A stretch of DNA of 32,000 bases from Candidatus Omnitrophota bacterium (GTDB taxonomy: Bacteria > Omnitrophota > Gorgyraeia > 2-01-FULL-45-10): contig JAMWCX010000002.1 of the NCBI GenBank assembly GCA_023818895.1, positions 210,001 to 242,000 of the forward strand, written 5' to 3'. Position 1 is the stretch's first letter; each line of letters opens with the position of its first letter. The notes beneath the pieces are model-generated. The model worked only from the letters and a program-made list of their open reading frames with translations. It did not search any database and was not told the origin of the DNA. A program made the translations under genes and the position numbers. Below are positions 9,105 through 30,360 of the stretch, one piece after another.

Positions 9105-10016
9105 TCATTCTCCTTTTCTCACAAATTGCTTTCCAGGAATCTCCCGTATAAGTTTCTTTAGCTGAAGACCTAGCAGCAGCTTCGAAACCTTCGCGGTATC
9201 GAACCCAGACCTGAAGGTTATCTCGTCTATATGGAGCGGTTCTTCTGATAATATCTTGTATAAAGTGCGTTCATCCTTCGTAAGTGAATTATATATATAG
9301 GCACGGGTCATCTTCTCTATCTTCGAGTCTATTTTCTTCCTGTCCTCGCTCGAAATGGGTTCCATCTCTCGTATCTTTAGTTCTTCAATGATATCCTCTA
9401 CCGACTGCACGAGCCGCGCCCCGTCTTTTATCAGCTCATTTGTGCCCGCGCTGGTCGCGGATGATACCTTTCCCGGCACGGCAAAGACTTCCCTTCCCTG
9501 TTCTGCCGCGAAGTTCGCCGTTATGAGCGCCCCCGAATTGCGAGCCGCCTCAACAACCACGACACCGAGTGACAAGCCGCTTATAATGCGGTTCCGGGCC
9601 GGAAAATTTTCCGGCAGCGGCGGCATATCATCTTCATATTCGGTAATCACTGCGCCGCTTGTGATTATTTGGTCGTATAACCGTCTGTTTTCGGGCGGGT
9701 ATATGACATTATGGCCGCTTCCCATGACCGCGATAGTCCTCCCGTTTGCCTTCAACGCGCCTTTATGAGCCGCCGAATCTATTCCGCGGGCCATTCCGCT
9801 CACCACCGTAACGCCGCGCAACGCCAGCTCAAAGGCAAGCTTCTCGGCCATCTCTAAGCCATACATCGAGGCCCGTCTTGACCCCACGATCGCCACCGCT
9901 ATTTCGTCGCGCTTTTCGAGCGTCCCGTTAACATACAACTCTTTCGGCGGCTTGTGAATGTTCTTCAGGTTTTTCGGATATTCCGGGTCATCTATATTTA
10001 TCTTTCGCGCTGCCAT
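9105..10016 (-). CDS. dprA: DNA processing/protecting protein DprA (Smf)
   Basis: 303 aa with the DprA Rossmann core (VAIVGSRRASMYG, VVSGMARGIDSAAHKGAL, AVMGSGHNVIYPPEN) and a C-terminal winged-helix-like tail. Its stop abuts the topA start. Confidence 0.9.
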   Translation of the reverse strand: MAARKINIDDPEYPKNLKNIHKPPKELYVNGTLEKRDEIAVAIVGSRRASMYGLEMAEKLAFELALRGVTVVSGMARGIDSAAHKGALKANGRTIAVMGSGHNVIYPPENRRLYDQIITSGAVITEYEDDMPPLPENFPARNRIISGLSLGVVVVEAARNSGALITANFAAEQGREVFAVPGKVSSATSAGTNELIKDGARLVQSVEDIIEELKIREMEPISSEDRKKIDSKIEKMTRAYIYNSLTKDERTLYKILSEEPLHIDEITFRSGFDTAKVSKLLLGLQLKKLIREIPGKQFVRKGE

Positions 10017-14496: not shown

Positions 14497-16008
14497 CTAT
14501 TTTTCCGCCAGAGCACGCTTGTTCATGGCGTTGACATAAGCCTTTATACTGGCTTCTATAATGTCCGTGCTCGCGCCGCGACCAGAGAAGATCTTGCCCT
14601 TGGATTCCACCTTTACTGTCACTTCACCTAAAGCATCCTTGCCGCCTGTTACCGATCGTATTTTGTAATCCAGAAGTTTTCCCGTCAAGGCCGTTATCTT
14701 ATCAATCGCTTTATAACACGCATCAACAGGCCCATCACCAGTGGAGCTCGCCTCGCTTATCTTACCGTTATATTTAAGCGTAACTGTTGCTGTCGGCTTA
14801 ACTTGGTCACCGGAAGCTATGTGAAAATGTACCAGGCATATCTTCTCTGGCATTTTACTGATTTCTTCATCAACTATCGTCTCGAGGTCTTCGTCGAATA
14901 TCTCCTTCTTTTTATCCGCCAGTTCCTTAAAGCGCTCAAAAGCCCTGTCCAGATCCGCCTTGTTCAGGTCAAGACCCATGGACTTCAACCGGGCATCGAA
15001 CGCATGTCTGCCGGAATGCTTTCCGAGAACTATTTTGGATTCCTCGAAACCGACATCTTCAGGACGCATTATTTCGTAAGTTATCCTCTCCTTAAGCACG
15101 CCATCCTGGTGTATGCCGGACTCATGCGCGAAAGCGTTAGCGCCAATTATGGCCTTGTTCGGCTGCACTGGCATGCCTGTAAGCTTGGAGACAAGCCTTG
15201 ATGTCTTGTACAGCTCCTTTGTGTTAATATCTGTGTATAGGCCTTTAAAGATATCGTTTCTTGTCCTTATGGCCATAACTATCTCTTCGAGCGAGGCGTT
15301 GCCGGCCCTCTCCCCAAGCCCGTTTATCGTGCATTCAACCTGCCTAGCGCCACTCAATACCGCGGCAAGAGAATTCGCCACACCAAGACCCAAGTCATTA
15401 TGACAATGGACGCTTATGACGCATTTTTGTATATTTGGAACGTTATATTTGAGGCTTCCGATAATATCCGCGAACTCGAACGGCGTCGAGTAACCGACGG
15501 TATCGGGTATATTAACCGTAGCCGCGCCAGCATCTATCACTGCCTCAACTACCCTCTGCAGGAATGAAAGCTCTGTCCTGGAAGCATCTTCAGGCGAAAA
15601 CTCTATATCGGGGCATTTTGCGCGAGCGTATTTTACCGCCGCTACGGCAAGCTTCAGTATCTCATCCTCCGCTTTCTTTAATTTATACTTCATGTGTATC
15701 TTGGAGGTGGCAAGAAAAACGTGTATCCTTGGCCTGTTTGAGAATCTTACCGCATCGTAGGCCGCGTCTATGTCTTTCTCCACGGAACGCGCTAGACCGC
15801 AGATGACCGGCCCCTTTACATTCTTGGCGACGGTCTTCACAGCTTCAAAGTCACCCGGGCTAGATACGGGAAATCCGGCCTCGATTATGTCGACGCCCAG
15901 CACCGCCAACTGTTTCGCAATCTCAAGTTTTTCTTTTATATTCAGACTTGCGCCCGGACATTGTTCGCCGTCCCGCAGCGTCGTGTCAAATATTATGATT
16001 TTTTCCAT
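14497..16008 (-). CDS. leuA: 2-isopropylmalate synthase (a citramalate synthase activity cannot be excluded from sequence alone)
   Basis: [35 protein letters not shown] and a C-terminal LeuA-dimer/regulatory region. The ORF track starts at GTG 16023. I set the start at ATG 16008 ([10 protein letters not shown]), which has AAGGA 6 nt upstream. Confidence 0.88.
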
Positions 16009-17625: not shown

Positions 17626-19298
17626 GCCAGGTCCCCTTCGAGCATCTTGTTGATCGCCTCGCCTGCCGGCACCATAGGAAAGACGTTTTCTTCTTTCTCC
17701 ACATGGAAATCCATAAAGACGATATTGTTGATCGAAAGCGCCTTGTCGATAGCAGGCCTTACTTCTTCCTTTTTGGTGATACGCATGCCGACAGCGCCGT
17801 AACTTTCCGCAAGTTTCACGAAATCGGGCTGGGCACCCTCCATGCATACCTGTGAATATCGCCGTTTGTAGAATAGCTCCTGCCACTGCCTCACCATGCC
17901 AAGATAGCAGTTATTAAGTATCGCTACTTTAACGGGAAGCTTATTTGTAACCGCCGTGGCAAGCTCCTGTATGTTCATTTGGATAGAACCATCGCCGGCT
18001 ATATCAAATACGGGGGTGCCGGGCCTGCCGAGCTGCGCGCCGATCGCCGCAGGAAAACCATAGCCCATTGTTCCGAGACCGCCTGAAGAGATAATGGTGC
18101 GCGGTTTGGTGAACTTGTAGAACTGCGCTGCCCACATCTGATTCTGGCCAACTTCCGTGCATATGATGGCATCTCCCTTGGTGGCTTCCCATATCTGCTC
18201 GACGACATACTGAGGCCTAAGCTTGCTATCGTTTTTGTACTTCAAGGGATACAACTTTTTCCACTCCGCTATCTGCTTAAGCCAAGCGCTGGTATCCGGC
18301 TTTTTGACATATTCAATAAGATTTTTCAACACCTTTTTGGCATCACCCACTATCGGAATATCCACGTCGACAGTCTTCGAAACGCTGGCCGGATCAATAT
18401 CGATGTGGATTATCTTGGCGTGCGGCGCAAATGCGTCAACCTTTCCTGTGACTCTGTCATCGAATCTGGCTCCCACAGCGATAATCAGATCGGATTCCAT
18501 AATGGCATGGTTTGCGTATGCGGTACCATGCATTCCAAGCATCCCAAGCGAAAGCTCGTGCGTCATGGGGAAAGAACCTAGCCCAAGAAGCGTCATTGTG
18601 ACAGGGATGCTATTTTTGGTCGCAAGTTCTATAACTTCAGAAGAAGCCCCTGATATTATCACCCCACCGCCCACGTATAGTATTGGCCGCTTTGATTCCG
18701 ATATCGCCTTGGCGGCCCTTTTTATCTGGCCAACATGCCCCTCATAAGTTGGGTTATAACCACGTATCTCGACCTTTTCAGGATAGCGAAACTCCGTCTC
18801 CTGCTGCTGCACATCGACAGGAAGATCTATGAGGACCGGCCCGGGCCTTCCCGTTGAAGCTATGTGAAACGCCTCTTTGATCGTACGCGCAAGGTCTCTT
18901 ACATCCTCGACAAGGTAATTATGCTTTGTGATCGGTCTCGTTATGCCTGTTATATCCGCCTCCTGGAACGCATCATTACCTATTAGAAATGTCTTTACCT
19001 GGCCGGTGAAGGCAACGATTGGCACCGAATCCATGTACGCGGTCGCAAGGCCGGTTACTAGATTAGTAGCCCCCGGTCCCGAGGTAGCAAGACATACACC
19101 CACCTTGCCTGTCGCCCTGGCATAACCATCGGCGGCGTGCGCTGCTCCCTGCTCATGGCGTGTCAATATAAACCTTATCGGGGCGTCGTAAAGCTTGTCG
19201 AATATTGGCAATACCACACCGCCCGGATAGCCGAACATTATCTCGACTTTCTCTTTTTTAAGACATTCGATAAATATCTGAGCGCCTGTCAGTTTCAT
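17622..19298 (-). CDS. ilvB: Acetolactate synthase large (catalytic) subunit, ThDP-dependent
   Basis: 558 aa with N-terminus [27 protein letters not shown] and the ThDP motif [15 protein letters not shown]...[14 protein letters not shown]. There is an ATGA overlap with the ilvD stop. Confidence 0.95.
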
Positions 19299-20950
19299 GC
19301 TTTAAGCACCGCTCCTTCCGACGCCGAGCCCACAGCCTTCGCGTATCTTGCCAGATACCCCTCCCTCTCCTTCGGCTCCGGCGCCTTCCATTTCTCAAGG
19401 CGCGCTTTGATCTCCGCATCGTTCAAATCCAGCGCCAGCTTTCGCGCTGGGATATCTATGACGATCGTATCGCCATCTTGGACTATCGCGAGCGGACCGC
19501 CGACTTGCGCCTCTGGCGAAATATGGCCTATGCACGGCCCTTGCGTTCCGCCGGAGAACCTTCCGTCGGTGATCAAGGCAACGTCATTAGAAAGCCCCAT
19601 GCCCACGATGGCTGCTGTCGGTGAAAGCATCTCCCTCATGCCGGGGCCGCCTTTCGGGCCTTCGTAACGGATGACGACACAGTCGCCCTTCTTTATCTTG
19701 CCTGCCATGATATCCTGCATGGCAGACTCCTCCGAATCAAAAACGCGGGCCTTACCCTTAAATTTCATCACTGACTCAGAGACGGCTGTCTGCTTTATGA
19801 CACACCCTTCCGGCGCCAGATTACCTTTAAGTACAGCTATGCCTCCTTCGGCATGATAAGCGTTCTTGTAATCGCGAATCACATTTTCATCCAATATTTG
19901 CGCCTCGTTGGCGATCTGGCTTATATTCTTTCCGCTTACTGTCATTACGTCATTCAGCTGATTCTTCATGCGTTTCATAATTGCCGGGATGCCACCGGCA
20001 GACTCGAGGTCTTCCATGAAATGCTCACCGGCCGGAAGGATATTAGTTATGTGCGGCGTAGAGCGCGATATCCTGTCGAACATCTCAAGAGGTATGTCGA
20101 TGCCGAATTCCTTGGCCACAGCGATGATATGAAGCACTGTATTGGTTGAGCCGCCGAGCGCCATATCGATCTTTATGGCATTCTCGAACGCCTCTTTGCG
20201 GCAAATGGTCCTGGGCAGCACATTGCGCTTCACGAGATTCACTATCTTCTCGCCGGACTCTTGCGCGATCCTGTCCTTCTTCGCTGAGACAGCAAGAGCG
20301 CTGGCGCATCCCGGCATGCTTAAACCCAACGCCTCGGTGACGCAAGCCATTGAATTGGCCGTGTAGAGGCCCTGACAGGAACCGGCGCCTGGGCAGGCGC
20401 ACATCTCAAGTGTCGAAAGTTCCTCAAGAGAAATATCCCCTTTCTTGCACCTTCCAACAGCCTCGAAAGTATCCTTAACCAGCGAAAGCCTCCTTCCCCG
20501 CAAGTTTCCGCTCAGCATAGGGCCGGCCGTCACTACGATGGCCGGAACATTTAGCCTTCCGACAGCCATCAGCATGCCCGGCGTTATCTTATCGCAATTG
20601 GTAAGGCACACCAGGCCGTCAAGCTGATGGGCCTTCATGATGCACTCTATCATATCAGCTATAAGCTCGCGCGATGCCAGCGAATAACGCATCCCCGTGT
20701 GGCCCATAGCGATACCATCACAAATTCCGGGAACACCGAAGAAAAAAGGAACTCCGCCGCCTGCAGCTATACCGCGCTCGATAAACCGCTCCAGTCTCGG
20801 CATGTGAATGTGGCCCGGAATAAGGTCAGTCCTTGAGGTAACAACACCAATAAACGGCTTGGCCATATCCTCCCTGGATATTCCCGTAGCGTACAAAAGG
20901 CTCCTTGCGCCGGCCCTTTCAATACCTTTCTTTATCTTATCACTACGCAT
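19295..20950 (-). CDS. ilvD: Dihydroxy-acid dehydratase
   Basis: [34 protein letters not shown], and the C-terminal [15 protein letters not shown] 20950 has AAGGAGA 6 nt upstream. The ORF-track start at 20971 lies inside promoter-proximal leader sequence. Confidence 0.95.
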
Positions 20951-20988
20951 ATAGCTCTCCTTTTCCCACATTATAGAATCGGGTTAAA

Positions 20989-21017
20989 ATTATATAATAT
21001 TAGCATATATATGTCAA
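20989..21017 (-). promoter_or_regulatory. Consensus sigma70-type promoter for the ilvD-ilvB-ilvN-ilvC-leuA operon
   Basis: On the minus strand: TTGACA (21017-21012), a 17-nt spacer TATATATGCTAATATTA, then TATAAT (20994-20989). An A/T-rich tract (ATTCTATTTATT) lies immediately upstream. The leader to ATG 20950 is about 30 nt. Confidence 0.75.
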
Positions 21018-21029
21018 ATAAATAGAATC

Positions 21030-21052
21030 CCCCGCCTGGACTCCAGGCGGGG
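21030..21052 (-). terminator. GC-rich hairpin, the second of two tandem terminator-like structures after the anti-sigma gene
   Basis: On the minus strand: CCCCGCCUG-GAGUC-CAGGCGGGG (9-bp stem, 5-nt loop), followed by the U-rich but interrupted tract GAUUCUAUUUAUUU. Confidence 0.55.
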
Positions 21053-21131: not shown

Positions 21132-21857
21132 CTACTTAACACTGCCGCTACTACCTATCCTGCGTAGCCCGGCTAGCGCCTCATCTATTTCCGGGCTATG
21201 CGGATATTCGGAGATTACCCTCTCGTAGGCCGCCTTCGCTTTTACGGGATCGTGAATCTTTTCTTCGTATATGATGCCGATCGCGCACTGGGCTACGCTT
21301 CCCAGGGCTGATCGCGGATATTTATCTACGACGTACTGGAAGGCCTTAACAGCTTTTTCATGCTCACCCATGCGCTCGTAATATGCGCCTATGAAAATCG
21401 GCATGCTGGACTGACCCGGCGCGGCTGGCCCGAACGCGGACGGCGGCGAGACCATGGAAGAACCAAACATAGCTCCGATGCCTTTATCGGCATAAAGCGG
21501 CGCGGCGTTGAGAAGCTCTCTGGTCCTTAACTTGTTAGTTTCGAGGAGAATCGACCCGTCAATCCTTGCGGAATACAAAGCCTCTTTTTCCGCTTTTTCG
21601 TTGGTGGCGGAAGATCCGGGCAAAAAGATGTTCCTGTAACCCAGCACCGCTGCGACCATTACCACAGCCACCGCCATGACCGCGGCCGCCATCCGCATGG
21701 CCGCGTAGTAGTCGATACCCGCCGAAGCCTCCGGCATGGTGTAAAGGCGATGTATGAACTCATCGGTCCTTGAGGCCGGAAGCTCGCGCTGACCAAGCGC
21801 GCCAAGCATGCCTTTGATCGCATCCTGGATTTTCTGGTCGTTATCTCTTGCGAACAT
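21132..21857 (-). CDS. Membrane-anchored anti-sigma-like protein with a C-terminal TPR domain. It is a paralog of 25349-26650 but lacks the FecR domain.
   Basis: The N-terminus MFARDNDQKIQDAIKGMLGALGQRELPASRTDEFIHRLY aligns with MRPTPDDRTIERRIKELVGRPPESRLPDSRAKEFVARLY of the paralog. There is a single TM (AAAVMAVAVVMVAAVLGY). The C-terminal TPR/YbgF-like region IGAYYERMGEHEKAVKAFQYVVDKYPRSALGSVAQCAIGIIYEEK is near-identical in pattern to the paralog. The start is set at ATG 21857 (GGGGGTGAAGGCG between the sigma TAG and the ATG) rather than the ORF-track 21881. Confidence 0.7.
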   Translation of the reverse strand: MFARDNDQKIQDAIKGMLGALGQRELPASRTDEFIHRLYTMPEASAGIDYYAAMRMAAAVMAVAVVMVAAVLGYRNIFLPGSSATNEKAEKEALYSARIDGSILLETNKLRTRELLNAAPLYADKGIGAMFGSSMVSPPSAFGPAAPGQSSMPIFIGAYYERMGEHEKAVKAFQYVVDKYPRSALGSVAQCAIGIIYEEKIHDPVKAKAAYERVISEYPHSPEIDEALAGLRRIGSSGSVK

Positions 21858-21870
21858 CGCCTTCACCCCC

Positions 21871-22461
21871 CTAAAATTCATCCTTAAGTTTAAGCAGGAA
21901 CTTATACAATATCTTACGCGCTCTCAGCACATGCGTGCCAACCGTCTTGGCGTTTGTATTCAATATGCCGGCGGCCTCCTCGTGAGTAAACCCCTCGACA
22001 TCGCACAGAAGAAGCGCGTGCCTGTATTTTTCGCTTAACTTTAAAAGAGCCTTCTCAATTATCTCCCGTATCTCGCCGCGCATCGCTGTGTGATCGGGCC
22101 TCTGCATCTCGTCCGCGATCATGTCGCCGATCGACTCATCGCTTCCTTCGGCTGAGGGCTGGTCAAGAGAGACGTCGGCGAGCTTTCTTTTCCTAAACTC
22201 CTTCTTGGCGCAATTTGTCGCTATCCTGTAGACCCACGGCAGGAACCTGCCCTCCTCTTCATAGTCCTTGAGGTGGTTATACACGTTCATGAACGTCTCA
22301 AGGGTAAGGTCCTGCGCCTTTTCGTCGTCGGCGAGGTATCTCGACAGGTAGCTGTATATCCTGTTCTTGTGCCTCTTGAAAAGAACGACAAAGGCCTCTT
22401 TATCCCCGGCCTTCGCTTTAGCCACCAGTTGTTCGTCGGTCGGCTGTATCTCTTTATCCAC
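21871..22461 (-). CDS. ECF-type (group 4) RNA polymerase sigma-70 family factor, intact copy
   Basis: 196 aa. Region 2: AFVVLFKRHKNRIYSYLSRYLADDEKAQDLTLETFMNVYNHL...FLPWVYRIATNCAKKEFRKRK. Region 4 HTH: YRHALLLCDVEGFTHEEAAGILNTNAKTVGTHVLRARKIL. The start is GTG 22461 with no obvious SD. Confidence 0.85.
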   Translation of the reverse strand: MDKEIQPTDEQLVAKAKAGDKEAFVVLFKRHKNRIYSYLSRYLADDEKAQDLTLETFMNVYNHLKDYEEEGRFLPWVYRIATNCAKKEFRKRKLADVSLDQPSAEGSDESIGDMIADEMQRPDHTAMRGEIREIIEKALLKLSEKYRHALLLCDVEGFTHEEAAGILNTNAKTVGTHVLRARKILYKFLLKLKDEF

Positions 22462-22616
22462 TAATATAATCCGTTAAATAAGATAATATCTTCAATTTTT
22501 TATCGATCAGCCCGTCCGGATCCTGCTTGCCTAATCAGCACTGCCTCGTCGCCGAGCCTACCGGCCGCTATCTCACAAATCGATAGTTTTTTAATCTGCT
22601 AAACTTTCAACTTAAA

Positions 22617-22645
22617 ATTTTATAATAATATGGTATAGGTGTCAA
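22617..22645 (-). promoter_or_regulatory. Sigma70-type promoter upstream of the intact ECF sigma gene
   Basis: On the minus strand: TTGACA (22645-22640), a 17-nt spacer CCTATACCATATTATTA, then TAAAAT (22622-22617). It is preceded by ATTCTATTTGTT, nearly the same A/T tract as at the ilvD promoter. This implies a 5' UTR of about 150 nt. Confidence 0.6.
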
Positions 22646-22753
22646 ACAAATAGAATTATATACTCATCATTGTGATATAGGGCGGGATACAGAAACTGCC
22701 CGGTATAAAATCATTCCAGAGCATCGTGGGCTGGCGAGATGGCTTTCGTCATG

Positions 22754-25168
22754 CTAATAAATTATTTTGCCCTCGTCCCATCCTATAAATGGATTTACGA
22801 AGAATTTTCCTATGGTCCTGCAGAAGGCTAGGCTCTTCTCCACCAGACCCCAATTGTAACCGACAAGCCCTTCTACCCACGCGTAACCGTTGACGGCGCC
22901 GTAAGCCCTGGAATAATAAATCCATCCCCTTGAGCCGTTTCCACCGACGAGGCCGCCGACACAGTTATTTCCCGTTACGGTTCCGTTTGTAATCGCATGG
23001 AGAAAGCCGTTATTCCAGCCGACAGCGCCTCCGACAAAATTGGAGCCGTTCACAGCTACATACGCTATGGTAGCTTTGATAACTCCCGTATTGCCGCCGG
23101 CGACCCCGCCGACACCGTCCGTTCCACGCGCGGAGCCGGTGACGCTGCAACCTTCGATAACACCGCTGTTCCAGCCGGCGATAGTGCCGACGCGTGAACT
23201 GCCCGCTACGGTTGCGTTCACCAGGTTTACATTCCTGATCGTGCCGCTATTTCCGGTTACCAGCCCGATATCTGAGGTATAAGGCTGGTTTATATAAAGG
23301 TTTATTATTTTATATCCATTACCGTCTAACGTGCCGGAAAAAGCCCCGAGCGGTTCAAAACCAATATAATAACCCGGCTTGGTATTGGACCATTTCCACT
23401 GAGCGCTCGCGGAAGCATCAATATCCCGCCTCTGGATAAAGGTACCGTCAAGTTTGTTACCGATACACGCAAGGTCGACGATATTATATATATTTGTTGA
23501 ATATGAGCCTTTATAGTTATGCCAATATCCATTAAGAATATAATATCTGTATAAACCGAAATCGATATAACCCCACCCTCCGATAATACCGCCTATGTCA
23601 CCGGATCCTTCGACTACGCCGGTAAATATAGAATCACCTATAACCACCGACGTCTTGCCGCTTTGAAATCCCATGATACCCCCTACATTGCTTATTCCGG
23701 AAACAGCACCTCTGGATAGGGCATTACTAATACGACTGTCGGCACCTGATATTCCACCCACATAATAAGCACCGCTAATGGTAGCCTCAGACGTTGCGCC
23801 ATCAATGTGTCCGGTAGTGATTGCACCGGTTATTCCCCCAGTATAATCCATGCCTTTGATGATGCCTTTTGAAGAGACATTTCTTATCGACATGTGATTT
23901 ACCCCGGCTATCCCGCCGGTATAATTCACCCCCTCGACAGTGCCATCAAACTCGCATACCAATACCGAATTTTCATTCCACCCCACTATACCGCCGGTAT
24001 AATCTCCGCTATTTGTCACCTTTGACAAATATTTTGAATCGCGTAAATACCCTCTGTTATAACCAACAAGTCCTCCGACGTAAGAGCCGCCGCCGTTTAC
24101 GGTTCCGTAGGACGTCGATAAAGAGATCTCACCCATACGCGATACATCCAAATCATTAACTCCTGTTATTCCTCCCACATATGATGTCCCATATACAGAG
24201 CCGCGGAAGGTCGTAGAGTAAATCAATGATGCAATGTTATGACCGGCTACTCCACCTACATAACTGGAGCCTCGCGTAATTCCATAGCTAGTGCATCCAA
24301 CTATCTGAGCATACTCTATGCCTCGCTCGTTACTGCCTGCTACCCCGCCGACATAATCTACGCCGGTGACGTCGTTGTACGCATTAGAAACTCTTATTGA
24401 TCTATTATTTATTCCTGCTATACCGCCAACATAGGAGACGCCTATTACCGTACCATATGCCGCGCAGGATTCGATGTAGCCACCCCTGAGCTGGCCGGCG
24501 ATGCCGCCGACGTAATTTACGCCTCTTACGCTTCCGGTAAAAGATAAATTCCTTATACCGTAGTAGCCGATATTTCCCGCCACGCCCCCGACGTAATTCC
24601 GTCCTGTGATATAGGCGTTTAACACGTTTAAATCATAAATACGGGGAGGTGGTTCATAGCCGGGCGAATACCACCCCTCCCCACCGGTCTGCCCAAAAAT
24701 CCCCACATAGTCTTCTTCTGGTCTGTTGATATAAAGGTTCGAAATGGTATATCCTCTGCCGTTGAAAACACCCTTAAAATTATCTATTGGATCGAATCCG
24801 AGTCCGCCGTTCCATAATCGTGTTTCGCTGGCGTCTATGTCGCAGGTAAGAATATAAAATCCATAAATGTCATTCTTAATATTTTGCAGCTATAAGACGT
24901 TTGAAATGAAAAAGACGGACTGGCTGCCAAGATGGCTCGCCTGCATGATCGGCGCTTCTCTCTGTATTACGAGAGGCGACTCTAGAGCGTTCATCATCTC
25001 AACAGCCGCAGTCGCATTTTGCTGGGCTGCTATGGCTTGCTCAACAGACATGCCGGAAGCGATCTTCTTCTGGTCGTTTTCGCTTCCTACATATTGTAGC
25101 TCCGGATACGCGACTTGCGCGGCCATGAACGATACTGCGATCGCGATGCATACCGCCTTCTTGGCCAC
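22754..25168 (-). pseudogene. Secreted GLUG-motif repeat protein (805-codon reading frame) interrupted by one in-frame TAG at 24890-24892
   Basis: ORFs 24890-25168 (92 aa, signal peptide MAKKAVCIAIAVSFMAAQVA) and 22754-24706 (650 aa) are in the same frame. The 61 codons between the TAG and the first possible start (GTG 24706) have no ATG/GTG/TTG, yet they encode LQNIKNDIYGFYILTCDIDASETRLWNGGLGFDPIDNFKGVFNGRGYTISNLYINRPEEDY. That stretch is homologous to the internal module RRDIDASASAQWKWSNTKPGYYIGFEPLGAFSGTLDGNGYKIINLYINQPYTSD at aa 426-478 of the 650-aa ORF. The body carries 18 x-Y-V-G-G-[ILV]-[AVT]-G repeats, the GLUG motif. Confidence 0.75.
22847..24598 (-). repeat. Coding repeat arrays of the GLUG protein: 13 units (about 23573-24598) plus 5 units (about 22847-23194), with a period of 25-33 codons
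   Basis: Motif positions in the 650-aa ORF are 37, 64, 91, 117, 148, 175, 208, 235, 261, 287, 314, 339 and 369, then 504, 530, 556, 581 and 609. Examples are NYVGGVAG, SYVGGIAG, DYTGGIVG and NCVGGLVG. At the DNA level the recurring plus-strand signature is ccgcc(g/a)ac(a/g)ta about every 80 nt. Confidence 0.8.
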
Positions 25169-25179
25169 GCCGATGTTCC

Positions 25180-25251
25180 TTAATATAGCGCCCGCACTAT
25201 AAGCGAAAGCACAAGCGATGGTAAAGCCTCTAAATAAGTGATTGTTTTCAT
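25180..25251 (-). CDS. Either a possible 23-codon upstream ORF, or a remnant of the original GLUG-gene start displaced by a 1-nt frameshift
   Basis: The best RBS in the region, AGGAGG-GGGCC-ATG (ATG 25251-25249), opens MKTITYLEALPSLVLSLIVRALY. Its TAA (25182-25180) overlaps the AAGGA RBS of the GTG 25168 start. It is one frame off from the main ORF, which is itself open upstream to 25309. Confidence 0.3.
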   Translation of the reverse strand: MKTITYLEALPSLVLSLIVRALY

Positions 25252-25348
25252 GGCCCCCTCCTATGCTTTTTTGACCTTCTTTATTTATTTGGTTACCTGC
25301 CTGATACAGCTAAAACCCAAGAGGAAGGAATAGGAGTGTCAGACTTTT

Positions 25349-26650
25349 TTATGGCCTAACAAGGTGGTTGGATATCCTTTTTATCCCAGATTGAGCTTCT
25401 TCAATCTCTGCGCTTTGGGGATAGTCTGAGAGGACTTTCTGATATGCCTGTATCGCATTCTTTGGATCGTTCAGCTTCTCTTCATATATAATGCCTATCG
25501 CGCATTGCGCTATGCTCGCGAGATTCGAATTCGGGTATTTATCGAGTATTTTACGGAACGTCTCTATGGCTTTTTCGTGCTCCTGCAGGCGCTCGTAATA
25601 AGCCCCTATGAAAAGCAGGAACTGAACGTCGTATTTGGGGTTAGAATATTGTTCCACTATCTCTTCGAGCTGTCGTATACTCTCGAAATGCTTATCAACA
25701 GATGCGGCCCTGATCGCCTGGTTGAAGGTGTTGACGATCGCCTCCATCTTCTCGGGCAGCACACTGGGCCGCGCGCTCGCAACGTAGAGAGGCACGGCGT
25801 TCAGAAGTTCTCTGGTGCGTGTTTTGCCGGTGCTGATGAGAAGCGCGACCTGAGGTTTTCTTCCTATCGAATACAGCTCCTCGAGCTCAAGAAGCTCATT
25901 CTCCATCAGCCGCTGAGGCCTCAGCGGCGGCCTGCCGGCATGGACTGTCGTCTTTTCCCCGGCTTCCACAAATACCGTATCGATATTCGTAACCCTCACG
26001 GCGCCGTCGAGCACTCCTACCCATGTCCTATCCGCAAGCGGCAGCGCCTGAACCATGAAATCCGTCCCCACCGCCGAGACGGAGGCCTGAGGCGTCCGGA
26101 TATCGAATTGTCTGTTGACAATACCGCCCTTCTTGTAAAAGGTAAAGGCCTTGCCTTTCTCAAGCATATACTCAGTACCGCCCGGCGAAGCCCTTGAGAA
26201 AGATCTCGCCAGCTTTATCTCGGAATCGCCTTTAAGCCGCATATGGTACGAGCCCTTGACGACAAGATCGGCCTGGCCGTCAGAAAACGTCTTTACTATA
26301 TCATTTCTGGCAAGCCGCACGCCCTTCTTTTTCTTGGCGAATGTCCATTCGTTCCTGCGGGCCGAATATATCTTCACTGTACCGCTTGCGTTCTGGACAA
26401 CAGGCCCAACAGGGGAAAAGAGGAAATGGGTGGCTACGATAAATATGAGGACGGATACTGCGACAGTCGCAAAGACGCGCGCGTCCCTTAACGTGGCAAA
26501 ATAGACTATGTGCTTGGCCTCTTCGGACACCTTATAGAGCCTCGCCACGAACTCTTTGGCCCTGCTGTCCGGCAACCGGCTCTCCGGGGGCCTTCCCACG
26601 AGCTCTTTTATCCTGCGTTCTATCGTGCGGTCATCCGGAGTTGGTCTCAT
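25349..26650 (-). CDS. Membrane anti-sigma factor with a periplasmic FecR domain and a C-terminal TPR domain
   Basis: 433 aa. The cytoplasmic N-terminus is homologous to the 21132-21857 paralog, and there is one TM (VFATVAVSVLIFIVATHFLF). FecR-domain pattern: VKTFSDGQADLVVKGSYHMRLKGDSEIKL...LEKGKAFTF...FDIRTPQASVSAVGTDFMV...VGVLDGAVRV. The C-terminus has TPR repeats (FIGAYYERLQEHEKAIETFRKILDKYPNSNLASIAQCAIGIIYEEKLNDPKNAIQAYQKVLSDYPQS). It starts 5 nt after the sigma stop. Confidence 0.8.
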   Translation of the reverse strand: MRPTPDDRTIERRIKELVGRPPESRLPDSRAKEFVARLYKVSEEAKHIVYFATLRDARVFATVAVSVLIFIVATHFLFSPVGPVVQNASGTVKIYSARRNEWTFAKKKKGVRLARNDIVKTFSDGQADLVVKGSYHMRLKGDSEIKLARSFSRASPGGTEYMLEKGKAFTFYKKGGIVNRQFDIRTPQASVSAVGTDFMVQALPLADRTWVGVLDGAVRVTNIDTVFVEAGEKTTVHAGRPPLRPQRLMENELLELEELYSIGRKPQVALLISTGKTRTRELLNAVPLYVASARPSVLPEKMEAIVNTFNQAIRAASVDKHFESIRQLEEIVEQYSNPKYDVQFLLFIGAYYERLQEHEKAIETFRKILDKYPNSNLASIAQCAIGIIYEEKLNDPKNAIQAYQKVLSDYPQSAEIEEAQSGIKRISNHLVRP

Positions 26651-26655
26651 AATAC

Positions 26656-27243
26656 TCAGCCCTCAAACTCTTTTCTGAACTTCTCCAGCATCGCATACAA
26701 GGCCCTCCGCGCCCTGACAAGTCTGGTATGAATGCACTCGGTAGTGCACCCAAGTATCTTTGCCGCTTCCTCATATTTCATCTCTTCTATGTCACACAGG
26801 CATATCACCTGCCTGTATTTTTCTTCCAGCCTCGATAAGACCTTGTAAACAAATTCCTTGAGGTCATTTAACTCGGCCTCGCGGGCTGGCCCGGAGCTTC
26901 TGCCCTCCAAGATATCGCCCAGCTTGATAGCCTTTTCCTAGTCGAGAGTCTCTTCCAGGGCCACCTCTTTTCTGCTGATCTTCCTGCGCAACGCCTTCTT
27001 CGCGTAGTTTGTCGCGATACGGTATATCCACGATGAGAATACGCTCATCTCATCATATCCCGGCAGGTTATTGTACACGCTTAAGAATGTCTCAAGCGTG
27101 ACATCCTGGGCCAGTTCAGCATCCCCAAGATACCGGGAAAGATAGCCATATATCCTGTCCTTGTACCTGTTGAACAGGACTACGTATGCCTCCTTGTCGC
27201 CGGCCTTGACCTTCTCAACCAGCTCGCTATCCGCTATCTCCAT
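26656..27243 (-). pseudogene. ECF-type sigma factor paralog interrupted by a single in-frame TAG (26938-26940) between region 2 and region 4
   Basis: ORFs 26938-27243 (101 aa, region 2) and 26656-26910 (84 aa, region 4 HTH: YRQVICLCDIEEMKYEEAAKILGCTTECIHTRLVRARRAL) share one frame. Read-through gives 195 codons, against 196 for the intact paralog. The alignment ...EVALEETLD*EKAIK versus ...ADVSLDQPSAEG places the TAG opposite CAG (GAC TAG versus GAC CAG). Confidence 0.8.
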
Positions 27244-27296
27244 AATTATAATCCGGCAAATAAAGGTGTTGGTGTCAAAAATACTTCTTTGGTTAG

Positions 27297-27324
27297 ATTA
27301 TATCACAGGGATTGTTAAAAACAA
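27297..27324 (-). promoter_or_regulatory. Candidate extended -10 promoter upstream of the interrupted sigma gene
   Basis: On the minus strand: TTGTTT (27324-27319), a 16-nt spacer ending in TGA, then TATAAT (27302-27297), that is TGnTATAAT. A TTGACACC box (27278-27271) homologous to the -35 of the paralog lies closer to the ATG, but it has no -10 at proper spacing. Confidence 0.4.
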
Positions 27325-27354
27325 CCTTTTGAGGCGGGAATGATCGGGCGGTAA

Positions 27355-29136
27355 TTATCTGGTCACCCGCTCATCGATAAAGATGACGGCCTCGCTCGAT
27401 ACACCGTCATCCTTCAGCGCTGCGGGCGCCTTATCTCTGAAAGTGTCTTTTATGGCCGCGGCAAATGCCTTGACGGCATTCTGTATCGTTGCGGAGTATT
27501 TTTCCCTGACAGGCCATATAACTTTTTCATAAATCTCGATCGATAGCTTCTCGGTGCCGCTTAAAGCGGCTCCATCCTTACGCTTTATCTCCTCGATGGC
27601 AAGGTCGACCAGGATCTTTCTCTTTGCGCGCTGGTCGAGGGCAAGTGTCCCCAGTTCCTCCGGAAGCTCTATCATGCCCATATATTCTTTCAGCAGCTCT
27701 TCGAGCTGGACATAGGTCGCTTCTGTCGTGACGATGTAGTCATTGTATGCGGCCGTCTGTGTCCTGGTGAGCGTATCGAGCGCCGCTTTGATCACGCTAA
27801 AATCCACCACTCCGCTGAAGGCATCCCGCATCGATTCGGCAATCCGTATGCACTGCATAGCCTCGGTAAACTCTTGCATCGTTTCATCATCGATATATTC
27901 ACGCTCCCTTACCAGGGCTTCGGCAGCTTCAAGCATACCTGATTCAATATCGGTCTTATCCTTCTTGGAATTTAAGGCGGCGATTATGGCGTCGAGGCCT
28001 TCTTCTTTGGCCAGGGCTTCAGCCGCCGCATTTAGATGCTTGAGGCCAGCCTCATAAGCGCGCTCCCGCGACTGAGATCTTTCGGCAACATTGTAATCAA
28101 CTGCCGCGCCGGCTTCGCCGGTTTCCGGTAAGCCCGCAAGGCTTTCGACGGGTTGTTTATTATTCAACTCCTTAACCTGGTTGTAAGCCGTTTGCGATAT
28201 AGCCAATTCATCACGCAGTTTAGGGTAGAGATCTCTCTGCCCTAAGATTGGCCGGATCGACGCAGTAGTCTGCCCGGCATCCGTCGCTGTAATGCGAGGG
28301 GTAACTGACCAGTTGAAGCTCTCGCCATAACCGTCAGAGGCAGTCTCTTTTCGTAATAAGATCGGATCTTTTGAAAACGCTATAATCTGCTCACCGTCGC
28401 CTGATGTTATCCGTACAGCGGTCGGCAACCCCATCGATATTGTGCTAAATACGCGGTCGGAGATTTTATTATACGCTCCCGTAGATTGATCCAGCATATA
28501 CACACCATCCGGCATATATTTTACTGTTACAATCTGTTGACTAAAATTCTCTTTCATAAGCCAATAACCGCTCTCGTCTTTCTTGACCCATACGACAGTT
28601 TGGCCAATATCTGAGTTACCCAGCAATACATAACTTACCACCCCGTTCTTGATTTCGGCAAAAATATCCGAAGAATTTATTGATCCGGCATCTCTCGGGG
28701 AAACACTAAGGCCACGACCTCCCAGAACGAGTTGCCGTGTTTCATCTTCAATCAGTAACGAGCCTTGTGGCTCACTATTTGTCGCATACCTTTCGCCAGC
28801 AACCGATATGACGCCTCCTCCCTTCGGTCCCTGCAGCGGTAGGCTTTCGGGCGCGTTCTCTGAAACATGGGTTTTCAGCTGGTTATCCGCGACACCGAGA
28901 ATATCCGAACGATTCTGAACATTATCTTCGCTCTTCGGGTTCCATTCTGATGGGATGACCCAGCCCGGAGTTGATAAAGCGCTCTGACGTTGCTCAAGTC
29001 TTCGCGTCGCATCTTCACGGTAGCCGTCAGATGCGGCCCCAATGCCTCCCGGCCAGCAAACTACAAGGACCATAATTGATAATATAATGGTATTATTTTT
29101 AATATATTTCACCTTATATAATATTAGAGCATACAT
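27355..29136 (-). CDS. Hypothetical secreted or membrane-anchored protein, with a beta-rich N-terminal half and an alpha-helical Glu/Ala/Leu-rich C-terminal half
   Basis: 593-aa ORF with an N-terminal hydrophobic signal/anchor (NNTIILSIMVLVVCWPGGIGAAS). I recognise no family motif. The start is either ATG 29136 or GTG 29112 (MKYIKNNT...), and neither has a strong SD. Confidence 0.6.
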   Translation of the reverse strand: MYALILYKVKYIKNNTIILSIMVLVVCWPGGIGAASDGYREDATRRLEQRQSALSTPGWVIPSEWNPKSEDNVQNRSDILGVADNQLKTHVSENAPESLPLQGPKGGGVISVAGERYATNSEPQGSLLIEDETRQLVLGGRGLSVSPRDAGSINSSDIFAEIKNGVVSYVLLGNSDIGQTVVWVKKDESGYWLMKENFSQQIVTVKYMPDGVYMLDQSTGAYNKISDRVFSTISMGLPTAVRITSGDGEQIIAFSKDPILLRKETASDGYGESFNWSVTPRITATDAGQTTASIRPILGQRDLYPKLRDELAISQTAYNQVKELNNKQPVESLAGLPETGEAGAAVDYNVAERSQSRERAYEAGLKHLNAAAEALAKEEGLDAIIAALNSKKDKTDIESGMLEAAEALVREREYIDDETMQEFTEAMQCIRIAESMRDAFSGVVDFSVIKAALDTLTRTQTAAYNDYIVTTEATYVQLEELLKEYMGMIELPEELGTLALDQRAKRKILVDLAIEEIKRKDGAALSGTEKLSIEIYEKVIWPVREKYSATIQNAVKAFAAAIKDTFRDKAPAALKDDGVSSEAVIFIDERVTR

Positions 29137-29184
29137 TTTTTGCCTATGAATGGTAATTATCTTACTTTTTTATGATTTAATTTC

Positions 29185-30360
29185 CTAATATTTGTAGACG
29201 CGAGGAACTCGGTTGGAGATACCGCAGACTACTTCGTAGGCTATTGACTCGGCCATGCGGGCAAGATTTTCGGCCCTTATCTCATCGAGGCCCTGCTTGC
29301 CTATAAGCACGACCTCGTCGCCGACCTTAACGCCTTTTATATGCCCTACATCTACCATGGTCTGGTCCATAGTCACTTTGCCGACCACCCTTGCCCTCTG
29401 ACCCTTCACCAACACTTCGGCCTTATTGGAGAGCTTCCTACCGTAACCATCGGCGTAGCCGATCGGAAGAGTGGCTATTCGGGTATGCTTCTGGGTAATG
29501 TGCGTCCGGCCGTAGCTTATTGAACGGCCTGGCGGGGTATCCTTAAGAAATACGATGCGGGTCTTAAGCGTAAGGGCGGGTTTTAATTTTATCAGCTTTG
29601 GAAAATTATATTTTGGATACATGCCGTAAATTATGAGGCCTGGACGGACCAGGTTAAGGTGAGAACGCTTAAAATCCACGGTCGCGATGGAATTGGCCGC
29701 ATGCTTTAACGGGATCTTTATCCAATTCTTCTCGATATCTGACAGGAGTTTCTCAAAAGCCTCTATCTGGTAATTGGTGAAGAAGTTATCATGGCCGGCG
29801 GAAGAAAAGTGAGTATAGATGCCTTCGAGAATTATACCCTTTTCGGCCGAAACCTTTTTAACAAAACCGAGCGCATCTTCATGCCATACGCCCACCCGGC
29901 CCATTCCGGTATCAACTTTTACATGAACCTTGACCGACCTCCCAACTGAGACCTCTTCCCTGATAGCTTCGAGCAGCTCTTCCCCGCCCAGGGTAATGGT
30001 AATGTCCTTCTGCGAGGCAACCTTCACCTCTGCGGGCAAGACAGAGCCCAGTATAAGAATTGGTGCTGTGATGCCGTGGTCTCTTAAGCGCAGGGCTTCG
30101 TCCGTTGTCGCCACGCCGAGGTAATCGACGCCCGCCCTTTCAAGGACCGAGGAGACTTCGACGGTACCGTGACCGTAAGCGTTGGCCTTGACAACGGCCA
30201 TGACGTACACGTCTTTTCCGACCAGCCTTTTCACCTGGCGGTAGTTATACTCTATAGCCCGCAGGTCTATTTCAGCCCATGTGGGACGGTGGTGAGTGTG
30301 AATGACCCCATCCCTGGTCCTCACTGATATTTCGCGCACCTTACTTCCCTGTGATATCAC
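29185..30360 (-). CDS. alr: Alanine racemase (PLP-dependent)
   Basis: RPTWAEIDLRAIEYNY, the PLP-lysine motif AVVKANAYGHG and a C-terminal beta-domain (YGRTHI...IATLPIGYADGY, MDQTMVDV). The start is uncertain. GTG 30360 (GAGGGA upstream) overlaps tsaB by 20 nt, while GTG 30339 lies 1 nt after the tsaB stop. Confidence 0.9.
   Translation of the reverse strand: MISQGSKVREISVRTRDGVIHTHHRPTWAEIDLRAIEYNYRQVKRLVGKDVYVMAVVKANAYGHGTVEVSSVLERAGVDYLGVATTDEALRLRDHGITAPILILGSVLPAEVKVASQKDITITLGGEELLEAIREEVSVGRSVKVHVKVDTGMGRVGVWHEDALGFVKKVSAEKGIILEGIYTHFSSAGHDNFFTNYQIEAFEKLLSDIEKNWIKIPLKHAANSIATVDFKRSHLNLVRPGLIIYGMYPKYNFPKLIKLKPALTLKTRIVFLKDTPPGRSISYGRTHITQKHTRIATLPIGYADGYGRKLSNKAEVLVKGQRARVVGKVTMDQTMVDVGHIKGVKVGDEVVLIGKQGLDEIRAENLARMAESIAYEVVCGISNRVPRVYKY

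Follow-up and report, generated by a model that had tools for sequence, protein, structure and literature searches.

Probable tandem units of a secreted protein, an extracytoplasmic function sigma factor and a FecR-type anti-sigma factor in a partly decayed island of an Omnitrophota genome

A stretch of 32,000 nucleotides (nt) from a Candidatus Omnitrophota bacterium (GenBank assembly GCA_023818895.1, contig JAMWCX010000002.1, positions 210,001 to 242,000 of the forward strand), called here the window, carries an island of six co-oriented minus-strand genes between alr (29185-30360) and ilvD (19295-20971). Listing of the open reading frames (ORFs) and their translation gave the minus-strand order hyp593, sigma-2, anti-sigma-2, GLUG, sigma-1 and anti-sigma-1, with thiL-tsaE-tsaB-alr on one flank and ilvD-ilvB-ilvN-ilvC-leuA on the other; this agrees with the gene order and the alr/tsaBE and ilv flanks given in an earlier note made from the sequence alone. 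The hyp593 and GLUG genes encode secreted proteins, the sigma genes encode sigma factors of the extracytoplasmic function (ECF) type and the anti-sigma genes encode putative anti-sigma factors with tetratricopeptide repeats (TPR). On balance, the region appears to consist of two tandem, partly broken units, composed in the order secreted protein, sigma factor and anti-sigma factor, of a kind that recurs throughout Omnitrophota. The features are collected in Table 1.

Table 1. Features of the island and its borders; positions are counted from the first letter of the window.
Feature	Position	Strand	Remarks
hyp593, secreted protein	27355..29136	-	start uncertain: ATG 29136, GTG 29112 or ATG 29073 (NCBI model P0121)
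hyp593 C-terminal domain, aa ~379-593	27358..28002	-	~210-aa all-helical bundle ending in a short beta-hairpin
Upstream promoter element TTAAatcATAAAAAAGT before hyp593	29164..29180	-	weak downstream hexamers; spacing 6 nt under consensus
Distal sigma70-type promoter of sigma-2	27297..27324	-	TTGTTT-16-TGTGATATAAT (TGTGA-TATAAT)
Proximal ECF-type promoter-like site of sigma-2	27247..27277	-	TGACAC-18-GATTAT within GGATTATA; directly before ATG 27243
sigma-2, ECF sigma factor	26656..27243	-	frame with one in-frame TAG
In-frame TAG of sigma-2	26938..26940	-	in the variable linker that joins the sigma2 and sigma4 domains; sigma4 part intact
anti-sigma-2, 433 aa	25349..26650	-	cytoplasmic N-terminus, one transmembrane helix, FecR/PupR-like beta domain, conserved alpha/beta linker, CpoB/BamD-like TPR
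Upstream promoter element TTAGgccATAAAAAAGT before GLUG	25343..25359	-	overlaps the anti-sigma-2 stop codon; consensus spacing, degenerate -35/-10
GLUG-repeat secreted protein	22754..25168	-	GTG start, signal-peptide-like N-terminus, 804 codons if read through
In-frame TAG of the GLUG gene	24890..24892	-	aligns with Glu in P0184 and Gln in P0197
Sigma70-like promoter in the sigma-1 leader	22617..22645	-	TTGACA-17-TAAAAT; 11/12 matches
Degenerate copy (~70 nt) of the 3' coding end of alr	22500..22573	-	in the sigma-1 leader; compare 29262-29342
Proximal ECF-type promoter-like site of sigma-1	22465..22494	-	TGAAGA-17-GATTAT within GGATTATA; directly before GTG 22461
sigma-1, intact ECF sigma factor	21871..22461	-	GTG start at 22461
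anti-sigma-1, 249 aa	21132..21881	-	N-terminal region, transmembrane helix and TPR kept; FecR domain deleted
Intrinsic-terminator-like hairpin	21030..21052	-	10 pairs, 9 of them G-C, then a T-rich tail; closes the island
ilvD promoter	21017-20989	-	TTGACA-17-TATAAT; follows the terminator-like hairpin

The product of hyp593 had been described as an orphan protein. It belongs to an Omnitrophota-restricted family whose members form the third gene of a conserved module. A word-indexed homologue search with hyp593 recovered hyp593 itself alone, and an exhaustive HMMER search was needed, which retrieved 63 family representatives of 500-1300 amino acids (aa) from 1.84 billion proteins. They follow one plan: a signal peptide, an N-terminal motif (Q..gP.WvI.S.lN / LKGPKGGG), a variable and unrelated middle, and a helical C-terminal domain that always stands at the extreme C-terminus. 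hyp593 scored 238 bits against the hidden Markov model (HMM) of the domain and E 5.6e-26 against that of the N-terminal motif. Pfam assigned no family to hyp593, and its C-terminal domain had no relative in Pfam or among PDB sequences. A structural model of the domain (predicted local distance difference test, pLDDT, 87.9; predicted template modelling score, pTM, 0.81) consists of a long helical bundle and a small hairpin, and its best Foldseek match against the PDB had E 0.11 and a template modelling (TM) score below 0.3. By these profiles and this model, the hyp593 C-terminus defines what appears to be a new protein domain.

A tblastn comparison of the six window products with related loci (designated by L numbers) matched the last ~215 aa of hyp593 to the C-terminus of the protein encoded just upstream of sigma. 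The domain HMM placed a hyp593-type gene directly 5' of sigma in L001, L002, L005-L010, L012, L015, L018 and L019, and the genes upstream of sigma in L011, L013, L014, L016 and L053 are homologous to those in L009, L010, L012 and L015. A unit of hyp593-family secreted protein, ECF sigma factor and anti-sigma factor with FecR domain and TPR is thus conserved in about 20 related loci; among the exceptions to the upstream position of the hyp593-family gene are one L018 unit and the sigma-1 unit of the window, which has GLUG upstream. L018 contains tandem units together with a 131-aa TPR-only remnant, and L019 contains two units. The layout and the kind of decay seen in the window appear to be typical for Omnitrophota, since they are matched by these tandem arrays and by the TPR-only remnant. 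The window genes had been viewed as two modules bracketing GLUG; an arrangement of tandem units fits better, such arrays being found in other Omnitrophota. No TonB-dependent receptor was found among the proteins of the window, as had been stated before, nor among the called genes of L001, L002, L018 and L019.

Both sigma factors matched Sigma70_r2 and r4_2 in Pfam. Against TIGR02937 of NCBIfam they scored 91-95 bits (cut-off 42.9), and both contain region 2 and region 4 only, in about 190 aa, as is characteristic of ECF (group 4) sigma factors; for sigma-2 these assignments hold only if its TAG is read through. The closest NCBIfam models were of the SigW, RpoE and SigM types, all under their equivalog cut-offs. 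No FecI model appeared among the top NCBIfam matches of either protein, and neither falls by these matches in the FecI-like clade (ECF239-243); the description of the pairs as FecI/FecR-type does not hold for the sigma factors, which score best on SigW/RpoE-type models. Sigma-1 and sigma-2 are 46% identical, and the L001 sigma is 56-57% identical to sigma-1 and to sigma-2, that is, closer to each of them than they are to each other. The amber codon reported in sigma-2 was found at 26938-26940, and sigma-1 is intact as reported. The sigma-2 nonsense lesion falls in the variable linker and leaves the sigma4 part intact; it is therefore recent, polymorphic or tolerated.

Anti-sigma-2 matched FecR (PF04773) in Pfam with 40.1 bits (cut-off 24), in addition to TPR families; in anti-sigma-1, TPR was the sole Pfam family and FecR was absent. 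In a BLASTP alignment, aa 14-106 of anti-sigma-1 correspond to aa 6-98 of anti-sigma-2 and aa 110-244 to aa 269-428, the N-termini of the two proteins being 31% identical. On this alignment, anti-sigma-1 is a paralogue of anti-sigma-2 minus the internal block that holds the FecR domain. Neither DUF4880 nor DUF4974/FecR_C was found in anti-sigma-2 by Pfam at E<=0.01, and TPR stand at its C-terminus instead. At least 124 FecR-TPR homologues of anti-sigma-2, with 35-60% identity, were retrieved, essentially all of them from Omnitrophota metagenome-assembled genomes (MAGs) or metagenome contigs, often several on one contig. An alignment of 30 family members showed 24 invariant positions in addition to G195-T196, which belongs to the Gly-Thr motif vlGTdFmV; all these invariant residues are present in anti-sigma-2, which is itself free of damage. 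FecR and FoxR self-cleave at a Gly-Thr bond (FecR G181-T182, FoxR G191-T192; PMC9249621), and the invariant Gly-Thr of the family is probably the equivalent of this self-cleavage site.

In the AlphaFold model of anti-sigma-2 (pLDDT 85.7), a helix at the N-terminus continues into the transmembrane segment; a beta-rich part at aa ~84-237, a small alpha/beta linker at ~250-291 and seven TPR-type helices at ~297-431 follow. In Foldseek searches, the beta domain matched the PupR C-terminal cell-surface-signalling domain (6ovk) and a Parabacteroides putative anti-sigma factor (4m0h/4m0n) with E of about 3e-07 (2.7e-07), and the C-terminal part matched the TPR domains of YbgF/CpoB and BamD (2xev, target-normalised TM score 0.75). 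A sequence profile of anti-sigma-2 matched CpoB 6g5s at E 4.5e-12. Its scores against the NCBIfam models of YbgF and BamD were below the cut-offs (TIGR02795, 48.3 versus 90.1 bits; TIGR03302, 43.6 versus 81.4 bits). The TPR part of anti-sigma-2 resembles YbgF/CpoB and BamD in fold and sequence and is not a member of these families. In the distant homologues P0076, P0105 and P0118, a zf-HC2 domain (H..C..C) replaces the short N-terminus while FecR and TPR are retained, which supports, at the level of domain composition, the anti-sigma assignment of the whole family; this is a case of domain swapping at the sigma-binding end. A recurrent FecR-less subtype of the anti-sigma factor was considered and rejected, as the short database matches P0057, P0075, P0078 and P0080 are fragments at contig ends. 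In sum, the domain calls of the earlier note were right: the FecR-less second anti-sigma factor is seen both in the Pfam result and as an internal deletion in BLASTP, and the replacement of the usual FecR C-terminal domain by TPR agrees in Pfam, NCBIfam, profile and Foldseek comparisons.

Three conserved elements were derived by comparing upstream regions. An extended -10 sequence TGnTATAAT, indicative of a sigma70-type distal promoter, was located ~60-125 nt upstream of every sigma gene; in the sigma-1 leader a TATAAT lies at 22660-22655. The second element stands directly before the start codon of sigma and has in close relatives the consensus TGAAtTATTT, ~12 nt and GGATTATA. It can be read as a -35 box TGAAnn, a 16-18-nt spacer and a -10 box GATTAT, and resembles SigW-type ECF promoters. 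The extended form of this motif has just two matches in the window, at sigma-1 and sigma-2. In L001, L005, L006 and L007 a near-identical ECF-type site precedes the gene downstream of anti-sigma, and these copies resemble the site of their own sigma. The loose motif has about one match per 10 kb of strand, and three or four matches in that ~250-nt interval would arise by chance with a probability of roughly 1e-3. The downstream genes in these four loci encode signal-peptide proteins, those of L001, L006 and L007 being homologous giants. Since the same ECF-type site is found before sigma and before the downstream gene in four relatives, the duplicated promoter points to autoregulation and a downstream output, the classical signature of an autoregulated ECF sigma factor with a neighbouring target.

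The giants behind anti-sigma (L001 13229-21311, L006 11672-16629 and L007 2948-8133) share an N-terminal EVTNYDLF(S/A)Y motif; one has 5516 aa and two run off their contigs, with >1650 and >1728 aa visible. The leaders of the related sigma genes have a further feature. In six of eight of them a hairpin was found whose C-rich arm pairs with the G-rich Shine-Dalgarno sequence; its loop contains the ECF-type -10 box (z-scores -1.8 to -3.2). These hairpins are located at L001 ~9350-9395, L006 ~9355-9395, L007 ~730-770, L008 ~2040-2080, and L018 ~9345-9385 and ~14935-14985. Their arms vary between loci in a compensatory way (CCCTCC/GGAGGG, CACACCCC/GGGGGTGTG, GCCCC/GGGGC and GCCTTC/GGAGGC). RNAalifold gave no consensus structure for the sigma leaders, their stems being misaligned, and folds of single sequences were used instead. 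Such a hairpin would make for poor translation of transcripts started at the distal promoter, and transcripts from the proximal promoter would be free of the arm that pairs with the Shine-Dalgarno sequence. Sigma-1 and sigma-2 of the window have no leader hairpin, and they have no Shine-Dalgarno sequence because their start codons follow the box by 3 nt.

The third element, gTTAGnnnATAAAAAAGy, is located ~35 nt before GTATACT upstream of hyp593-family genes and, in more distant loci, upstream of the downstream gene too. Its core has exactly two copies in the window, with 0.24 expected. A metagenome scan for the element returned 63 loci, in which the gap peaked at 34-35 nt (39 of the 63). Because an alignment of 47 non-redundant sites revealed a canonical TTGACA 17 nt before TATACT, with the A-tract of the element at about -57 to -50, the element is an UP-like or activator site (perhaps of an unknown global activator) on a housekeeping-type promoter and not an ECF promoter. 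The genes behind it mostly encode signal-peptide or membrane proteins, among them giants of 3496 and 3580 aa, pilin-like proteins and FG-GAP proteins, and the closest homologue of the GLUG protein, P0184, also carries it. As judged from these genes, the element marks a broad promoter class of surface proteins across Omnitrophota. The combination ATAAAAAAG..GTATACT was tried as a target promoter of the ECF sigma and rejected, both for the TTGACA-17-TATACT found behind the element and for the rarity of sigma/anti-sigma pairs at its loci (3 of 63).

Copies of the element were located at L001 6997, L002 13616, L006 8326, L009 2045 and 5445, L011 7856, L012 3198, L013 7857 and 11060, L014 11265, L015 7856, L016 903, L018 829 and L020 7772, and also in L021-L083. 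At L009 5445 and L014 11265 it lies inside the last codons of anti-sigma (RLGIKKL and KLENKKV), and at 25343-25359 of the window it overlaps the stop codon; where it is so embedded, the protein's C-terminus and the element in the DNA impose limits on one another. A second large or giant membrane-anchored family stands behind the element in L027, L029, L030, L035, L056, L078 and L079. Its members have in common an N-terminal domain with the motif LP.YLG...D......IHIQDAHCNY, and the family reaches 3496 and 3580 aa, and the one member scanned had no Pfam match.

The GLUG gene occupies the position of the downstream output in the first unit. Its product matched Glug (PF07581) with 29.7 bits (cut-off 20.5) and contains ~18 GLUG-type repeats, 15 recognised by a strict regular expression and 3 variants; the amber-interrupted protein with 18 repeats described before is therefore real, with the TAG at 24890-24892. 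The closest homologue, P0184 from Omnitrophota, aligns end-to-end over the N-terminal 231 aa with 42% identity, spanning the TAG. Since this alignment runs across the TAG, with Glu in P0184 and Gln in P0197, the gene appears to have once been a single frame of 804 codons, broken by one G/C-to-T change, and is probably a pseudogene. Apart from one substituted base, which creates its TAG, each of the two interrupted frames of the island is intact. The protein database contains hyp593 and anti-sigma-2 of the same contig but neither of the read-through products of GLUG and sigma-2, consistent with annotation of the two genes as pseudogenes. A global recoding of TAG was rejected, as many of the window's ordinary genes, alr and thiL among them, end in TAG and no suppressor tRNA is found in the window. 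Between the promoter element and the start codon of GLUG, in a different frame, sits a mini-ORF of 23 codons (MKTITYLEALPSLVLSLIVRALY, 25180-25251, minus strand) with a strong GGAGGGGG Shine-Dalgarno sequence, which could be a leader peptide or a relic.

The GLUG protein had been taken as the defining partner of the sigma modules. Its counterpart was found in none of the related sigma loci examined. More than 5000 GLUG homologues, annotated as GLUG proteins, are scattered over bacteria and archaea, and P0184 has neither sigma nor anti-sigma within 8 kb. On these grounds GLUG was rejected as a component of the module; judged by its distribution, it is a variable passenger in the output position and not the core of the unit. 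Compared with other GLUG proteins (PF07581, related to the N-terminal region of IgA1-protease M26), it has a signal peptide and two blocks of GLUG-type repeats (~18 in all), each preceded by a DIDAS...GxFDGxGYxIxNLxI head; it differs in lacking a protease or sorting domain, in its nonsense codon and in a closest relative unlinked to sigma/anti-sigma. Unit A of the window is composed of hyp593, sigma-2 and anti-sigma-2, with GLUG in the output position, and has a nonsense codon in the sigma gene and another in the output gene. Unit B is composed of sigma-1 and anti-sigma-1; it has an intact sigma factor, a sensor-less anti-sigma factor and no output gene. Given the two nonsense codons of unit A and, in unit B, the absence of the sensor and of an output gene, the most likely reading of the island is a pair of units in decay and not a new GLUG-centred system.

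Several known systems resemble the Omnitrophota unit in part. With the FecI-FecR-FecA type, including FoxR and PupR, it shares an ECF sigma factor and a single-pass anti-sigma factor, the latter having in its periplasmic part the FecR (PF04773) fold with a conserved Gly-Thr. In structure this part is matched best by the C-terminal cell-surface-signalling domain of PupR, and release of the sigma factor by stepwise proteolysis would be expected. However, the Omnitrophota unit has no TonB-dependent transducer, its sigma factor is SigW/RpoE-like and not FecI-like, and its anti-sigma factor has no DUF4880 or DUF4974/FecR_C and ends in a CpoB/BamD-like TPR domain. Its neighbour is a secreted protein with a helical domain, and its outputs are surface or giant proteins and not iron uptake. 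PUMA3 of Pseudomonas aeruginosa is encoded in the order VreA, ECF sigma factor VreI and FecR-like anti-sigma factor VreR; VreA is not a complete TonB-dependent receptor, and it has a recognisable signalling domain of such receptors. The order of an extracytoplasmic partner, an ECF sigma factor and an anti-sigma factor of the FecR-like kind is the same in Omnitrophota, but the hyp593 family has no VreA-type signalling domain and no detectable homology to it.

FecR-like anti-sigma factors with TPR (ECF267) and without TonB-dependent receptors (spirochaete ECF242) are known (Casas-Pastor et al. 2021, PMC7826278), and because of them the anti-sigma architecture is unusual but precedented. These groups differ in belonging to Proteobacteria and Spirochaetes and, for ECF267, in a tie to a protein kinase; for neither has a hyp593-family partner or a downstream giant-protein output been described (PMC7826278). 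SigI/RsgI of Clostridium thermocellum and DdvS/DdvA of Myxococcus are similar in the many paralogous pairs per genome, the modular extracytoplasmic sensors, the periplasmic TPR in DdvA, autoproteolysis as first step and the control of neighbouring secreted-protein or island genes by the sigma factor (PMC10328401, PMC11506125). Their sigma families and sensors are unrelated to those found here: RsgI senses polysaccharide via carbohydrate-binding modules and DdvA has a TPR-CHAT domain (PMC10328401, PMC11506125). In line with the previous failure to recognise the combination as a described system, our literature search found no publication on sigma factors, FecR or these promoters in Omnitrophota, two giant-gene studies included. 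The unit is an undescribed, phylum-restricted variant of the ECF sigma factor with FecR-type anti-sigma factor, extended by a partner family and a domain that are both new.

From these comparisons a working scheme can be proposed. The distal sigma70-type promoter would give constitutive basal transcription of sigma and anti-sigma, and the N-terminus of the anti-sigma factor would hold the sigma factor at the membrane. The FecR-TPR part would read a periplasmic or surface cue, probably via protein contact, and the cue would lead to stepwise proteolysis of the anti-sigma factor and release of the sigma factor. Once freed, this would act on its own operon via the proximal promoter, as a positive feedback, and on the secreted or giant surface-protein gene just downstream of anti-sigma. 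The sigma factor is predicted to recognise the TGAA..GGATTATA sites of the sigma and downstream genes and not the TTAGnnnATAAAAAAG-type promoter; the hyp593-family gene would be transcribed from a sigma70-type promoter with the conserved upstream element.

Some observations weigh against this scheme and against the reading of the region as two units. The promoters are all assigned on sequence motifs. No ECF-type promoter is recognisable before GLUG, where only a weak GCTTATA box stands, and control of this gene by sigma-2 or sigma-1 is therefore hypothetical. With a sigma/anti-sigma pair in so few of its loci, the upstream element does not tie hyp593 or GLUG to the module, and in one L019 unit the gene upstream of sigma encodes an acyltransferase and not a hyp593-family protein. 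The equivalence of the invariant Gly-Thr to the FecR/FoxR site comes from its position in the domain and not from direct alignment. Finally, both nonsense codons could reflect strain variation, the assembly being a consensus.

Concerning the hyp593-family protein, two roles were weighed. It may be the extracytoplasmic sensor partner or a co-receptor, in the place of a TonB-dependent transducer or VreA; its middle would bind an external ligand or host surface, and signalling would start when the FecR-TPR part is touched by its conserved C-terminal domain or its N-terminal motif. This is an attractive, if tentative, possibility that would account for the fixed place of the gene directly upstream of sigma in nearly all units, for the conserved termini around a variable middle, for an own non-ECF promoter, as for a constitutively made sensor, for the protein-binding TPR at the end of the anti-sigma factor and for a gene order parallel to vreA-vreI-vreR. 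Against it, several hyp593-family genes stand in arrays in which they are not each paired with a sigma gene (L002), and the C-terminal domain resembles no known signalling domain. The family may otherwise be mere surface or secreted cargo that clusters with sigma pairs through block duplication and has no part in signalling. Its promoter class, common with pilin-like, FG-GAP and giant proteins, the copies side by side in L002 and L019, and the dockerin-like or beta-helix-like middles of some members agree with cargo, but block duplication alone fails to explain why one family lies 5' of sigma across relatives whose anti-sigma factors are 35-60% identical, and we consider this role an equally tentative possibility.

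Two further readings concern the damage in the window. The earlier note proposed a hybrid circuit in which anti-sigma-2 controls sigma-1, so that the two damaged modules make one working pair driving GLUG. The damage is indeed complementary in form (a TAG in sigma-2, FecR loss in anti-sigma-1), and this, together with an intact anti-sigma-2 that keeps all the family-invariant residues, is all that favours the proposal. The divergence between the two sigma factors, for both of which the L001 sigma is the nearer relative, and between the two anti-sigma N-termini argues against it, and anti-sigma-1 keeps its N-terminal region and membrane anchor, so that sigma-1 still has a cognate binder. The supposed target GLUG has a nonsense codon and no ECF-type promoter, and as a rule ECF/anti-sigma pairs from different groups act orthogonally (PMC7826278). 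We therefore regard the hybrid circuit as very improbable. It is also improbable, though to a lesser degree, that the TAG codons are not inactivating, being either read through (by a suppressor tRNA or in a programmed manner) or minority or erroneous consensus bases of the MAG, with both genes functional in the population. Such a view fits the fact that both interruptions are TAG and that each is the sole defect in an intact, well-conserved frame. On the other side, TAG ends many genes of the window where homologues predict a stop, tRNA genes are absent from the 32 kb, and the products of the two genes are absent from the protein database, as noted above, in spite of the presence of their neighbours.

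As for the origin of the island, the sigma-1 leader has the degenerate copy of the alr 3' end, and positions 29073-29111, just upstream of the NCBI start of hyp593, align with the proximal promoters of the sigma genes (22461-22494 and 27243-27277). The alr copy and this promoter-like stretch suggest an older arrangement in which sigma-1 directly followed alr, and into which a block of hyp593, sigma-2, anti-sigma-2 and GLUG was inserted, the junction being duplicated in the process. L001, the nearest of the related units, stands in another context (secY-adk-map); units evidently move or are gained and lost, and in this the term accessory, which had been applied to the island, finds qualified support. 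The GC content of the island is unremarkable, and no integrase or tRNA was found at its borders. The sigma-1 leader also has GTGAGATAGCGG (22575-22564, minus strand), like the sigma-2 start ATGGAGATAGCGG, and a second TTTGACACC box (22646-22638, minus strand), which resembles the -35 region of sigma-2; both may be left over from an earlier 5' end of a sigma gene. A direct repeat of 23 nt with 83% identity, whose 14-nt core CTAATATTATATAA is identical in the two copies, occurs in the promoter region at either island edge (20990-21012 and 29114-29136), 8124 bp apart, and could be due to chance in AT-rich DNA or be a footprint of recombination.

The remainder of the 32-kb window is of housekeeping character and also includes aro genes, a prepilin peptidase, dprA, topA, xerC/D-like genes and lipid A/Kdo genes. 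Every recognised gene in positions 1-32000 is on the minus strand and the GC skew is negative throughout, consistent with one replichore of strong co-orientation. An Rfam scan of the island gave zero matches, as did the PADLOC models of anti-phage defence for the five proteins scanned.

Omnitrophota are uncultured, mostly ultra-small bacteria, suspected to be host-dependent or predatory, in which giant surface proteins are known (PMC10066038; bioRxiv 10.1101/2023.11.21.568195). No publication on the regulation of their giant genes was found, and a conserved multi-copy unit with matching promoters provides a testable regulatory hypothesis, whose promoter motifs can be searched in metatranscriptomes. 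The hyp593 C-terminal domain and the promoter-upstream element are newly defined for the phylum. For the window itself the result is modest, a partly decayed unit in which GLUG is incidental. A wider view, which is unlikely to hold, would be that of a phylum-specific trans-envelope signalling in which the hyp593-family protein replaces the TonB-dependent transducer and signals via the FecR-TPR anti-sigma factor to the ECF sigma factor, turning on the adjacent giant surface-protein gene; dozens of such units per genome would then form a sensory array for choosing the surface or attack proteins of putative host-dependent nanobacteria. Confirmation of a sensor role for the hyp593 family, and of control over giant surface proteins, would raise the significance of the unit.

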